Program-made: the position numbers and the translations under genes
IMG/VR virus record: IMGVR_UViG_2802429220_000013
Direction: 5' to 3' (one strand)
Length of the DNA: 39,831 bases
From: a virus
Taxonomy: Duplodnaviria > Heunggongvirae > Uroviricota > Caudoviricetes
Shown: positions 1 to 38,823 of the stretch, in pieces
How the letters are laid out: each line of letters starts with the position of its first letter
Numbering within the stretch: position 1 is the stretch's first letter
The notes under the pieces: generated by a model
What the model was told of the DNA's origin: nothing
The model's input: only the letters and a program-made list of their open reading frames with translations
The model's database searches: none

Positions 1-1248
1 ATGGCACTGAATATACCATTCAGAAATGTGTACTATCGTTTTGCATCCAGTTACTCATTTCTCTTTTTTATTTCCTGGTCGCTGTGGTGGTCGTTATACG
101 CTATTTGGCTGAAAGGACATCTAGGGTTGACTGGGACGGAATTAGGTACACTTTATTCGGTCAACCAGTTTACCAGTATTCTATTTATGATGGTCTACGG
201 CATCGTCCAGGATAAACTCGGTCTGAAGAAACCGCTTATCTGGTGTATGAGTTTCATCCTGGTCTTGACCGGACCGTTTATGATTTACGTTTATGAACCG
301 TTACTGCAAAGCAATTTTTCTGTAGGTCTAATTTTGGGGGCGCTCTTTTTTGGCTTGGGGTATCTGGCGGGCTGCGGTCTGCTTGATAGCTTCACCGAAA
401 AAATGGCACGAAATTTTCATTTCGAATATGGAACAGCGCGCGCCTGGGGATCTTTTGGCTATGCGATTGGCGCGTTCTTTGCTGGCATATTTTTCAGTAT
501 CAGTCCCCATATCAACTTCTGGTTGGTTTCGCTATTTGGCGCTGTATTTATGATGATCAACATGCGTTTTAAATATCAGGATCAGCAGTGCGTAGCGGCA
601 GATGCGGGAGGGGTAAAAAAAGAGGATTTTATTGCAGTTTTCAAGGATCGAAACTTCTGGATTTTCGTCATATTTATTGTGGGGACGTGGTCTTTCTATA
701 ACATTTTTGATCAACAGCTCTTTCCTGTTTTTTATGCAGGTTTATTCGAATCACACGATGTAGGAACGCGCCTGTATGGTTATCTCAACTCATTCCAGGT
801 TGTACTCGAAGCGCTGTGCATGGCCATTATTCCTTTCTTTGTTAATCGGGTAGGGCCAAAAAATGCATTACTTATCGGTGTTGTGATTATGGCGTTGCGT
901 ATTCTTTCCTGCGCACTGTTCGTTAATCCCTGGATTATTTCATTAGTGAAGCTGTTACATGCCATTGAGGTTCCACTGTGTGTCATTTCCGTCTTCAAAT
1001 ACAGCGTGGCAAACTTTGATAAGCGCCTGTCGTCGACGATCTTTCTGATTGGTTTTCAAATTGCCAGTTCGTTGGGGATTGTGTTGCTTTCAACGCCGAC
1101 TGGAATACTTTTTGACCATGCAGGTTACCAGACGGTTTTCTTCGTAATTTCGGGTATTGTCTGCCTGATGTTGTTATTTGGCATTTTCTTCCTGAGTAAA
1201 AAACGTGAGCAAATGGTGATGGAAACGCCTGTACCTTCTGCAATATAG
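1..1248 (+). CDS. cscB: Sucrose:H+ symporter CscB (LacY-family MFS permease), host gene
   Basis: 415-aa ORF; near-identical along its whole length to my recollection of E. coli CscB; multiple hydrophobic segments. csc locus is known to lie next to argW in sucrose-positive E. coli. Confidence 0.85.
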   Translation: MALNIPFRNVYYRFASSYSFLFFISWSLWWSLYAIWLKGHLGLTGTELGTLYSVNQFTSILFMMVYGIVQDKLGLKKPLIWCMSFILVLTGPFMIYVYEPLLQSNFSVGLILGALFFGLGYLAGCGLLDSFTEKMARNFHFEYGTARAWGSFGYAIGAFFAGIFFSISPHINFWLVSLFGAVFMMINMRFKYQDQQCVAADAGGVKKEDFIAVFKDRNFWIFVIFIVGTWSFYNIFDQQLFPVFYAGLFESHDVGTRLYGYLNSFQVVLEALCMAIIPFFVNRVGPKNALLIGVVIMALRILSCALFVNPWIISLVKLLHAIEVPLCVISVFKYSVANFDKRLSSTIFLIGFQIASSLGIVLLSTPTGILFDHAGYQTVFFVISGIVCLMLLFGIFFLSKKREQMVMETPVPSAI

Positions 1249-7012: not shown

Positions 7013-7165
7013 TCATTTCCTGCGATACCACGGAAGGTTGATAGCTGATTTCATCGCTTTATTTGCTTCAAGCCACATTTTTGAATCACCAATAAACCTG
7101 GCTATTACTGCTTTGTTTTGTGCTGCACGAAGCATCTGGTGATTGATGGCTATTTCATTGCGCAT
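7013..7165 (-). CDS. kil: Kil-like small protein
   Basis: 50-aa ORF not in track; …IARFIGDSKMW… resembles my recollection of the lambda Kil motif IATFIGDEKMF; GGAGG RBS; overlaps cIII-like stop. Confidence 0.45.
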   Translation of the reverse strand: MRNEIAINHQMLRAAQNKAVIARFIGDSKMWLEANKAMKSAINLPWYRRK

Positions 7166-7284
7166 AACGCCTCCAGTTGTTTCTTTGCTGCTCTGATTAA
7201 TTGTTTAACTCGGCGTGATAATTCAGATTCGTGCGGGTAGAAAGCGGACATGACGCCGCTACCCGCGAGCTGAAAGTGCATCAT
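7150..7284 (-). CDS. cIII: cIII-like FtsH inhibitor
   Basis: 44 aa starting MMHFQLAGSGVMSAFYPHESELSRRVKQLIR…; AAGGAG RBS; pattern resembles lambdoid CIII proteins. Confidence 0.55.
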   Translation of the reverse strand: MMHFQLAGSGVMSAFYPHESELSRRVKQLIRAAKKQLEALCAMK

Positions 7285-7348
7285 GGGTAACTCCTTATAT
7301 TTGATTGCATAACGAAAACGCCTCGAATGAAGCGTTATTGGTATGCAT

Positions 7349-7374
7349 ATAAAAAGGCCCTCACACTGGAGGGC
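7349..7374 (-). terminator. Rho-independent terminator (tL-like) between the N-proximal gene and cIII
   Basis: Hairpin gccctc-cagtgt-gagggc followed by CTTTTTA on the minus strand. Confidence 0.45.
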
Positions 7375-7508
7375 AAAGAAGATTTCCAATAATCAGAACA
7401 AGTCGGCTCCTGTTTGGTTACGAGCGACATTGCTCCGTGTATTCACTCGTTGGAATGAATACACAGTGCAGTGTTTATTCTGTTGTTTATGTCAAAAATA
7501 AAGGCCGA

Positions 7509-8132
7509 CTATGCGGCCTCGGAAGGAAGTCCAATCATCTTATTCAAATCTTCTACCCGTAAAGCAGGAAGTGCTGTACTTGCTTTATCTGCTTCTTTTG
7601 GTAGCAATTCTTTGCTTTCAGGCCAAACCTCAATAAGTCGCTTAACTGTTGTGACTGAGTTCAAAGCAGCCCATACATTTGATTCGATATCCTTTTTCTT
7701 GGCTTCAAGTTTTTGTTGCAATGCGCAGATTTCATCAAACCTTTTTGTTATTTCGTGTTCTGCGCTAAACATGCATTTATCTTTGTTCGGAGTAGGGAGC
7801 AATATATCTTCGCCGTTGCCGTCTTTCCCATATGAAAGCCATCCAACCCTTCTGCCAGATACAGTCAGATAAATTGAAGTAGAACGAACATCGTATGAGT
7901 AAAATGAACATCCAATCTTTCCAAGTTCTTCACTTATAGCTACCAACTTGGATGATAACTGATTCACTTCCTCAGTTTTCTTTTTACCGCCAAACGCAAT
8001 AACTCTGGCGTCAAGTGCAAGCTGGTTCTTTAACTTTGTTACTTCTTCAAGTTCAGTGAAAACCCCAGACTTAATTAAAGCGTTACGAGCGATTTCCTCT
8101 TTCATTCTCGTAGTTAAGCGGATTGATGACAT
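7509..8132 (-). CDS. Hypothetical 207-aa protein immediately downstream of N (ral/sieB slot)
   Basis: Internal ATG with GAGAGGAATTAAT RBS 12 nt after the N stop; hydrophilic, no TM segments; no family recognised. Confidence 0.55.
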   Translation of the reverse strand: MSSIRLTTRMKEEIARNALIKSGVFTELEEVTKLKNQLALDARVIAFGGKKKTEEVNQLSSKLVAISEELGKIGCSFYSYDVRSTSIYLTVSGRRVGWLSYGKDGNGEDILLPTPNKDKCMFSAEHEITKRFDEICALQQKLEAKKKDIESNVWAALNSVTTVKRLIEVWPESKELLPKEADKASTALPALRVEDLNKMIGLPSEAA

Positions 8133-8143
8133 ATTAATTCCTC

Positions 8144-34477: not shown

Positions 34478-34479
34478 AG

Positions 34480-34550
34480 TTGAAGCCCCAACTGCTGGAA
34501 CAGTCAGGGCTTCGGTTGTCAGTAAATCCGTGGAGAAAAACCAACATGAA
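34480..34550 (-). ncRNA. sar: Possible sar-like antisense RNA across the arc-ant junction
   Basis: By synteny with P22 immI only; intergenic hairpin gaagccc…gggcttc is present; promoter and ends not verified. Confidence 0.25.
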
Positions 34551-37423: not shown

Positions 37424-37444
37424 GGTGGATCACTCCACCTTTTC
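37424..37444 (+). terminator. Hairpin plus T-run at the convergent tailspike/int junction
   Basis: ggtgga-tcac-tccacc followed by TTTT; overlaps the int stop codon. Confidence 0.4.
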
Positions 37445-38587
37445 ATCAAGCCAATCTGCCCACCACTGCATCATTTCTCTGCGCTTGTCGAGATACTGAG
37501 CGTGGTTGTAAATCCCGCGCACAGATCCGCCGTTGGCATGTGCCAGTTGCACTTCAATAGCATCAGCAGGCCATTCGTGCTCGTTCATAATCGTGCTGAA
37601 TTCATGCCTGAATCCGTGACCGCTTTCCAGCCCTTCATAGCCAATTTGTTTGATCACAAGCAATACCGCGTTCTCGCAGATTGGCTTCTTCTTATCGTTG
37701 CGCCCGGCAAAAACAAACTCTGAGACTGGTTTGGTGATTGAGCTTAGCGTAGTGAGAAGTTCAACCACCTGGTCTGACATCGGGACCACATGAATTTTGC
37801 GTCCCTTCATCACACTGGCGTCGATGGTGATAATCCTGTTTTCAAAATCGACGTTCTTCCATAGCATGGAACGAAGCTCTTTTGTTCTTAGGGCTGTGTA
37901 GCGTAAAACTTTGGTCGCAATGAGCGATACGATACTTCCTGAAAATGTTGCCAGTGCTTTGTTGAATGCCGGGATCTGGTCTGCAGGAAGAAACGGGAAG
38001 TTCTTCTTGCGGTATCCCTTCATGGCGTCAGCAAGGTCAGGTGCTGGGTTATATTTAGCCCTTCCGGTGACAATAGCGTAACGGAAAACCTCGCCGCATC
38101 TTCTGCGGGCTTTATTTGCTCGCTCCATTGCACCGCGATCTTCAAATCTGCGGATTACTTCCAGCAGTTGCATCGGCTCAATATCCTGAATCTCAAGACC
38201 GCCGATGATGGGTAAAATGTCGTCATCAAACATTTTTGCAAGTTCAGTCGCATACCCTACTGACCAGACTTGCTTCTTGTGTTCGTACCATTCCTTGTAA
38301 ATTGCACTAAAGGAATTGTTGTTAGACGAAGCCTTTTTCGCCTTTACCGGATCGATGCCAACCGAGATGTCTTTCCTCGCAGTCCATGCCTTATCCCTTG
38401 CTTCCTGCAAAGTCATAAGCGGATATTTTCCTACGGTCAGGATTTTCTCCTTACCGTCAATCTTGTAGCGAAGCTGCCATACCTTTTTCCCTGATACAGG
38501 GACATAAAGGTACAGGCCATTACCATCGAGAAGGCGGTATGGTTTTTCTTTCGGCTTTGCTGCTTCAATCTGCTTAACGGTGAGCAT
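37430..38587 (-). CDS. intS: Tyrosine integrase (IntS / CPS-53 type)
   Basis: 385 aa from ATG (MLTVKQIEAAKPKEKPYRLLDGNGLYLYV…), essentially identical to K-12 IntS as recalled; track ORF extends 12 codons further to a GTG at 38623; catalytic R…HxxR…Y residues present. Confidence 0.9.
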   Translation of the reverse strand: MLTVKQIEAAKPKEKPYRLLDGNGLYLYVPVSGKKVWQLRYKIDGKEKILTVGKYPLMTLQEARDKAWTARKDISVGIDPVKAKKASSNNNSFSAIYKEWYEHKKQVWSVGYATELAKMFDDDILPIIGGLEIQDIEPMQLLEVIRRFEDRGAMERANKARRRCGEVFRYAIVTGRAKYNPAPDLADAMKGYRKKNFPFLPADQIPAFNKALATFSGSIVSLIATKVLRYTALRTKELRSMLWKNVDFENRIITIDASVMKGRKIHVVPMSDQVVELLTTLSSITKPVSEFVFAGRNDKKKPICENAVLLVIKQIGYEGLESGHGFRHEFSTIMNEHEWPADAIEVQLAHANGGSVRGIYNHAQYLDKRREMMQWWADWLDEKVE

Positions 38588-38632
38588 GGGTAAAAATCCG
38601 GTGGGTAAAATTATTTTATCCACTTTTTACCC
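38588..38632. promoter_or_regulatory. Three copies of GGGTAAAA / TTTTACCC; candidate integrase arm-type sites between int and the att core
   Basis: Same motif as at 1757-1777; could alternatively be coding repeats if int starts at the upstream GTG. Confidence 0.3.
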
Positions 38633-38742: not shown

Positions 38743-38763
38743 GATAAATGGTGTCCCCTGCAG
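38743..38763. repeat. att core copy at the tRNA-proximal prophage junction
   Basis: Exact 21-bp direct repeat of 1678-1698, overlapping the 3' end of argW. Confidence 0.8.
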
Positions 38764-38823
38764 GAATCGAACCTGCAATTAGCCCTTAGGAGGGGCTCGT
38801 TATATCCATTTAACTAAGAGGAC
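38749..38823 (-). tRNA. argW: tRNA-Arg (anticodon CCU), host argW, intact
   Basis: 75 nt on the minus strand: GTCCTCTTAGTTAAATGGATATAACGAGCCCCTCCTAAGGGCTAATTGCAGGTTCGATTCCTGCAGGGGACACCA; cloverleaf with anticodon loop cuCCUaa. Confidence 0.9.

Follow-up and report, generated by a model that had tools for sequence, protein, structure and literature searches.

An Nmad5-family gene forms a portable cassette in the ral slot of a lambdoid pL operon

The stretch of DNA analysed here, IMG/VR virus record IMGVR_UViG_2802429220_000013 (39,831 nucleotides (nt), referred to throughout as the window), is a prophage of the lambdoid kind that has lambda immunity, carrying a lambda-type cI (10216-10929), pL and nutL boxB. 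Its pL operon runs on the minus strand in the order N, a 207-codon gene, cIII, kil, a 103-amino acid (aa) open reading frame (ORF), RecT and a Gp157-family gene. The 207-codon gene, lying between N and the leftward terminator, is the subject of this analysis. An earlier account based on the letters alone, here called the sequence-only reading, had found that its product matched no recognised family; this was wrong, the protein being a full-length member of the Nmad5 family (nucleotide modification associated domain 5, Pfam PF18757) and already named as such by RefSeq. Coordinates of the locus and of other features are collected in Table 1.

The gene boundaries and the strong ribosome-binding site (RBS) of the sequence-only reading were confirmed by the ORF, by a GAGGA element and by the starts of homologues. 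Read from the sequence, the N stop codon (TGA, 8146-8144) is followed at once by GAGGA (8143-8139) and then by ATG (8132-8130); 11 nt intervene and the A of the ATG is the twelfth base, which agrees with the 12 nt spacing first given. The GAGGA was invariant among the Nmad5 loci with printed upstream sequence. Called mechanically, the longest ORF starts at a TTG at 8192 and would yield 227 aa, but the methionine of the ATG at 8132 (MSSIRLT...) was the start in 21/21 aligned homologues, and 207 aa is therefore the right product. The 624-nt ORF was intact in 76/80 related viral loci, with a rough pN/pS (ratio of non-synonymous to synonymous polymorphism) of 0.52, and the coding signal is not due to chance. 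The GC content of the gene is 40%, that of N 50% and that of the window 47%. An antisense ORF at 7471-7872 (plus strand, 133 aa), the counterpart of which is annotated HK542c101 in EF120458, was judged to be probably a spurious call, since the conserved Nmad5 frame encloses it completely.

Membership of the family was unambiguous, with the PF18757 profile matched at E=1.6e-71 (241.1 bits against a 27-bit cut-off) over its full length, residues 4-203 falling on profile positions 1-206 of 206. PHROG 1965 (function unknown) was matched at E=6e-82. The Pfam scan gave only Nmad5 above noise, the Ral model PF11058 not being matched; NCBIfam gave zero matches to the 207-aa protein, and the 5,027 models of PADLOC-DB gave 0 families at E≤1. 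Because the Nmad5 family is without established function, this is not homology to a family of established function, and the earlier proposal of an early accessory gene is left standing by it.

The gene is already known. At the DNA level the region shares 98.8% identity with phage HK542, in which the gene is gp33 (HK542c102), HK244 (HK24401) is likewise matched, and near-identical copies occur in mEp235 and Stx1 prophages; the gene is also found in Kapi1 and in many Stx1/Stx2 prophages, and a 100% identical protein is encoded on one 39,924-bp IMG/VR contig. Proteins named 'Nmad5 family putative nucleotide modification protein' by RefSeq were present in 211/5,426 complete E. coli genomes (3.9%). 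A search with the family profile returned 2,299 clusters at E≤1e-3 among 1.84 billion representatives, and the best-scoring 150 of these 2,299 were nearly all stand-alone proteins of about 200 aa. Searches by tblastn recovered many records from several lytic lineages, including 56 Pseudomonas records (Yuavirus examples among them), many Dhillonvirus-type E. coli phages and N4-like phages. Nothing on the gene was found in the literature on HK542 and HK244, and one 2025 paper on lambdoid phages does not mention it.

By consensus scan, N contains no promoter-like site, and the transcribed strand is free of terminator-like sites from pL (8679-8651) to position 7520. The Nmad5 gene, having no promoter-like site of its own and standing before all terminator-like sites, is therefore predicted to share the first pL transcript with N, and it is probable that it is made as part of this N-independent transcript and not in the lysogen. 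The proposal that it would be expressed from pL even if N did not antiterminate is thus a fair one, the gene being upstream of every terminator-like site. The terminator that the sequence-only reading had placed at 7349-7374 was recovered, but it is not the first after pL: a hairpin at 7520-7501, previously overlooked, comes earlier. This hairpin has a stem, GAGGCCGCATAGTCGGCCTT, of 7 pairs (5 G-C) followed by the tail TATTTTT (-11 kcal/mol, z = -2.9), its left arm encodes the last Nmad5 residues and the stop codon, and most of the downstream variants listed for the 80 related loci have it.

Further downstream, what had been described as a perfect 9-bp hairpin at 7437-7464 is real and larger than stated, with a 14-bp stem (-22.6 kcal/mol, z = -7.1; 0/200 shuffles fold as well). 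At least 120 viral contigs contain an exact copy of its 28-mer, and 331 phage records, HK97, HK022 and phage 21 among them, match the 210-bp segment around it, downstream of the slot. An RNase III processing site and a protein-binding palindrome are both possibilities for it. The site homologous to the terminator stem at 7374-7357 is annotated 'terminator' in HK97 and phage 21. On the opposite strand, the consensus scan flagged nutL boxB as a hairpin.

Table 1. Positions of features in the window
Feature	Position	Strand	Basis
Nmad5-family gene, 207 aa	7509..8132	minus	PF18757, PHROG 1965, HK542 gp33 match, AlphaFold model
N antiterminator gene, lambda-type arginine-rich start MDAQARRRERR	8144..8470	minus	ORF, translation, HK542 annotation
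Ribosome-binding site GAGGA, 6 nt before ATG, directly after N stop	8139..8143	minus	sequence
pL promoter, TTGACA-17-GATACT	8651..8679	minus	consensus scan, 10/12 matches; pL annotated at homologous place in HK542 records
nutL boxB hairpin GCCCTGAAGAAGGGC	8581..8595	minus	read directly; annotated nutL boxB in EF120458
Intrinsic-terminator-like hairpin and T-run belonging to the Nmad5 cassette	7491..7520	minus	scan; overlaps gene stop codon
Long backbone hairpin, 14-bp stem (two G-U pairs), no T-run	7435..7466	minus	folding
Backbone leftward terminator	7347..7374	minus	scan: stem 7374-7357 and T-run; -10.7 kcal/mol
Second backbone terminator-like hairpin (third such site overall)	7317..7336	minus	scan; -9.9 kcal/mol
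cIII	7150..7290	minus	Pfam PF08134, E=2e-30
kil	7013..7165	minus	Pfam PF06301, E=2e-20
sar RNA (P22-type immI antisense RNA), two tandem tRNA genes of the late regulatory region and int-alpA small RNA (sRNA) match, together	34478-34545, 16620-16772, 18709-18771	minus, plus, plus	Rfam

The predicted timing bears on whether the gene might protect the lysogen, by superinfection exclusion or prophage defence of the SieB or Rex type. Lambda carries sieB between N and ral, and a homologue of Nmad5 appeared toxic when cloned (PMC11846954). The Nmad5 gene, however, lies behind the repressed pL with no promoter-like site of its own, has zero PADLOC matches, and belongs to a family that is abundant in strictly lytic phages. 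Its product is soluble and, as the sequence-only reading had noted, hydrophilic in contrast to SieB (grand average of hydropathicity, GRAVY, -0.32), without a membrane segment (best 19-residue Kyte-Doolittle mean 0.68). A role of this kind is very unlikely.

The organisation of the locus was compared across 80 closely related viral loci; the related-locus search gave only loci at least 94% identical, and more distant contexts were taken instead from annotated phages and encoding contigs. Among the 80 loci the Nmad5 gene follows at least five types of N (arginine-rich starts MDAQTRRRERR, GNAKTRRHERRRK, NARNRRRARR, NSRSRRRERL and SASRRRARR), or ral. At the left junction, many loci had the intact C-terminus of the window-type N and then 11 nt, approximately 15/80 had an N with another C-terminus followed by an untranslated remnant, some 60 nt long, of the 3′ end of the window-type N, approximately 8/80 had ral and a terminator-like hairpin, and the remaining loci had shorter joints. 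The right junction falls just past the gene's own hairpin, which travels with the gene. The Nmad5 gene is a portable cassette consisting of RBS, gene and its own terminator-like hairpin, and the remnant of roughly 60 nt looks like the footprint of cassette spread by recombination inside N. The C-terminal end of N (..KPRSEMGVTCVGRQKMKLGSKPLI) is common to N proteins with three different arginine-rich motifs. In the prophage of E. coli O157:H7 TX 265-1 (L219, 3067-3939), RefSeq annotates a 69-nt 'antitermination protein' pseudogene fragment before Nmad5, which appears to be this same N remnant, and the 800 nt where a full N would be expected are left unannotated.

The slot that the cassette occupies is an accessory slot of the ral/sieB type, as had been suggested: in phage 21 ral lies between N and the same conserved hairpin and terminator segment, and in HK97 gp45 lies there. 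The Nmad5 gene is positionally equivalent to ral. To survey occupancy, the first 120 matches in IMG/VR with a perfect copy of the hairpin 28-mer were taken, and every same-strand ORF of 50 aa or more lying from N to the hairpin was recorded; this is not a random sample, and opposite-strand genes (such as lambda sieB) were ignored. There were 95 usable loci, 86 of them with a recognisable N. Ral, confirmed by PF11058 (a Ral from the slot scores 161 bits), was found in 32/86 loci, a 156-aa HK97 gp45-like protein (PHROG 1636) in 16/86, Nmad5 in 9/86, a 149-aa membrane protein (PHROG 3054) in 9/86 and a 293-aa ORF in 4/86, while 5/86 had no ORF of at least 50 aa and the rest held several smaller ORF families and combinations. 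The content of the slot therefore varies greatly, Nmad5 being one cassette among about a dozen. Further slot cassettes (loci L100-L218) encode a DUF7446 protein of 80 aa and ORFs of 98, 63, 67 and 91 aa.

This position raises the main rival to the interpretation developed below, namely that Nmad5 is a dedicated anti-restriction or anti-defence protein like Ral, blunting host nuclease defence right after injection, possibly by stimulating a host or phage DNA-modifying enzyme or redirecting it onto unmodified phage DNA. Occupation of the exact slot of ral in phage 21, of which Ral is the commonest occupant in the survey, predicted immediate-early expression and a sporadic distribution among lambdoid prophages (3.9% of E. 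coli genomes) are all consistent with it. On the other hand, neither PF11058 nor any PADLOC model was matched, and the calculated isoelectric point of 8.3, not strongly acidic, rules out a DNA mimic of the Ocr/ArdA type. In the loci where ral and Nmad5 stand in tandem (about 8/80) both genes are present, so they are not simple alternatives. The spread across several lytic lineages, as judged from tblastn record counts, looks unlike that of typical fast-turnover anti-defence genes. Finally, the supplements of two phage accessory-gene screens contained no entry for Nmad5, PF18757 or two peptide strings.

In 55 diverse members, conservation peaked in a C-terminal segment, T-x-K-[KR]-L..WPE..ELLP...LP....DLN..IGLP, with L166, W170, E172, L176, P178 and N197 invariant and T162, P171, E175, L196 and G201 near-invariant, all of them present in the window protein. 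Conserved positions were mostly hydrophobic, Gly or Pro, the polar ones being only R43, T162, E172, E175 and N197, and across the 55 members there was no conserved constellation of His, Cys, Asp, Ser or Lys. Conservation of this kind resembles that of an interaction module more than that of an active site. The AlphaFold model, which is confident (predicted local distance difference test, pLDDT, 84; predicted template modelling score, pTM, 0.69), begins with three long helices, continues with a small beta-sheet and a long helix at 127-158, and ends in short helices. It matched no solved structure and showed no fold similarity to any enzyme, and PDB sequence searches with the single protein and with a 55-sequence profile gave nothing significant. 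In BFVD the best named matches were Nmad5-domain or uncharacterised phage proteins (best E=5.6e-13, TM 0.76).

These observations bear directly on the view, assumed by the family name and by the paper on the Tmn defence, that Nmad5 is a genuine nucleotide- or DNA base-modifying enzyme. The Pfam and RefSeq names, the conserved acidic residues E172 and E175 and the adjoining thymidine hypermodification genes in Yuavirus (PMC9476957) can be cited for it; against these stand the lack of any cofactor-binding or catalytic motif and of an enzyme-like fold. The Pfam name, as we read it, says 'associated with' modification genes and not 'catalysing' modification. Moreover, other modification genes are lacking around Nmad5 in lambdoid carriers: its neighbours in the window (N, cIII, kil, the 103-aa unknown ORF and RecT) include no gene for nucleotide or DNA modification, and the association is seen only in distant members.

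Those distant Nmad5 genes lie mostly within DNA-transaction modules (replication, recombination, base modification). Vibrio phage Athena1 has Nmad5 directly before replication protein O, and the N4-like Salmonella phage FSL SP-076 has the order ThyX, Nmad5, exonuclease, primase, Sak4 and single-stranded DNA-binding protein (SSB). An Oceanospirillum phage carries helicase, Nmad5, deoxyribosyltransferase and nuclease, followed by methylases, and one metagenomic contig carries an SNF2-type helicase, Nmad5 and a ParB-like protein, these being the two cases in which Nmad5 comes directly after a helicase. Of two metagenomic temperate phages, one has Nmad5, DUF7173, AAA_24 (Sak4-type; AAA_24 is annotated Sak4-like in FSL SP-076) and DUF669, and the other DUF4406 and Nmad5 with an MT-A70 methylase and SSB further downstream. 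DNA polymerase A follows Nmad5 and an Rv2179c-like protein in two metagenomic contigs, and lies three genes downstream in another, where DUF2800 and one unassigned gene precede Nmad5. In Yuavirus vB_Pa-PAC5, Nmad5 is located between aGPT-Pplase1 and the dU hydroxymethylase (annotated thymidylate synthase), with DNA polymerase A near. The Nmad5 gene of Dhillonvirus SM_S22 (L003, 4296-5300) overlaps the end of the scaffolding gene; that of a metagenomic siphovirus is at 6001-6606 of L097. The modification-related neighbours (MT-A70, adenine methylase, a deoxyribosyltransferase annotation or the related DUF4406, hydroxymethylase and aGPT-Pplases) also favour a Ral-like function, which could work through such enzymes.

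Gene order in the relative vB_Pa-PAC5 places Nmad5 at the edge of the hypermodification cluster of M6-like phages; nevertheless, synthesis of 5-NedU by Pseudomonas phage M6 was rebuilt in vitro from gp54 (kinase), gp51 (aGPT-Pplase2), gp53 (radical S-adenosylmethionine enzyme, rSAM) and gp52 (pyridoxal phosphate enzyme), with Nmad5 absent from the enzymes of the reconstitution (PMC8989533). That the M6 pathway is complete in vitro in its absence weighs against an enzyme, which is altogether unlikely, and its dispensability for the hypermodification chemistry alongside such neighbours is in keeping with a Ral-like factor.

Counter-defence proteins are often sensed by defence systems. In Dhillonvirus SM_S22 escape from the Tmn defence maps to nmad5: a K296E substitution escapes and its reversion restores sensitivity, whereas deletion of nmad5 gives no escape, and cloning of the gene proved impossible, apparently from toxicity (PMC11846954). 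The SM_S22 protein (CDS6) aligns with the window protein at 31% identity over 100 residues (E=1e-12), and the residue opposite K296 is R165, part of the near-invariant K164-R165 pair that immediately precedes WPE. In phage T2, Tmn is triggered directly by RIIB (PMC13001434); homology of Nmad5 to T4 RIIB was considered and rejected (hhalign probability 1.6%). Genetic linkage to Tmn adds to the case for a dedicated Ral-like protein, which, with the points for and against it taken together, we hold to be possible, if doubtful.

The interpretation to which we lean, with modest confidence, is that Nmad5 is a non-catalytic, immediate-early accessory factor for phage DNA transactions or counter-defence. 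Upon infection or induction it would be made with N from the first pL transcript, whereas the repressed prophage would not make it. We picture a helical adaptor with a conserved C-terminal segment, most likely no enzyme, whose docking partner would be either DNA itself or the replication, recombination or modification machinery that handles phage DNA when it has just been injected or is being replicated. Phages would gain from it conditionally, as an accessory and not an essential function, probably in counter-defence, and the Tmn defence appears to read the same conserved surface in the Dhillonvirus relative.

Several points weigh against this interpretation. A slot in common with ral is a poor guide to function, the other occupants scanned having no assigned function themselves. 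The last 25 residues, the most conserved of the protein, are modelled with low confidence, and for this reason the docking segment is something that we infer. E172 and E175 could, with N197 and R43, form a small active site. In SM_S22 and in the metagenomic siphovirus, Nmad5 is a lone antisense gene inside the structural module. Covariation lent no support to the putative cassette terminator, since the inspected stem variants are disruptive, all weakening the stem and none compensatory. Expression timing was read from consensus scans only, to which Rho-dependent termination and real termination efficiency are invisible.

A broader form of the proposal, which is speculative and which we regard as improbable, is that Nmad5 proteins are widespread non-catalytic 'modification or protection facilitators'. 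Their C-terminal segment would bring phage or host DNA-modifying, replication and recombination enzymes to phage DNA; in lambdoid phages they would, like Ral, enhance protective modification, or would form a shield against nucleases, and Tmn would have evolved to sense the surface as a signal of infection.

Some features elsewhere in the window deserve mention. It carries a P22-like virion module, with a tailspike head-binding domain and sar RNA. A 173-aa ORF at 9193-9714 (minus strand; PHROG 2602) lies between cI and a terminator-like site at 8891-8870, for which reason its expression from the prophage is expected; this is the place where lambda has rexAB. It had no Pfam or PADLOC match, differs from the two ORFs of HK542 at the same place, and could be an uncharacterised prophage defence gene. 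The ends of the window, with a LacY-family symporter gene (1-1248, plus strand) on the left and a tRNA gene (38752-38823, minus strand) and a formate/nitrite-transporter-family gene (38899-39831, minus strand) on the right, look like host DNA. The integrase gene (37430-38623, minus strand) adjoins this tRNA gene, points away from it and is convergent with the tailspike gene; its position beside the right-hand tRNA means that it and the pL operon lie at opposite ends of the prophage, which is unusual among lambdoid phages.

Compared with other lambdoid Nmad5 members (HK542 gp33, HK244 HK24401, mEp235 and the Stx1 prophage genes), nothing sets the window gene apart. Distant members, for example those of Yuavirus, share with it the full-length family match, the stand-alone size of about 200 aa and the C-terminal motif, but they adjoin replication or base-modification genes, whereas the window gene lies directly behind N. 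CDS6 of SM_S22 resembles the window protein in its C-terminal half, with the mutated Lys aligned to R165 in K-[KR]-L..WPE; it differs in being 334 aa long, with only the C-terminal 100 residues aligning, and in being encoded antisense between head genes. Ral (PF11058) of lambda and phage 21 is likewise the product of a small accessory gene of the pL operon in the same slot, although it has 66 aa against the 207 of Nmad5 and no sequence similarity to it, and the two genes stand in tandem in some phages. HK97 gp45 (PHROG 1636) and the other occupants use the same exchange site and are unrelated in sequence. RIIB of T4 and T2 is, like Nmad5, an early phage protein genetically linked to Tmn sensing, with no detectable homology between the two. 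The survey of the slot thus amounts to a short list of uncharacterised immediate-early cassettes that alternate with ral, among them the gp45-like family, the 149-aa membrane protein and the 293-aa ORF. HK542, mEp235 and similar lambdoid carriers are laboratory phages amenable to genetics, and in them Nmad5 is a single-gene, promoter-less cassette behind N; they are therefore a good place in which to test the function of the family and its sensing by Tmn.

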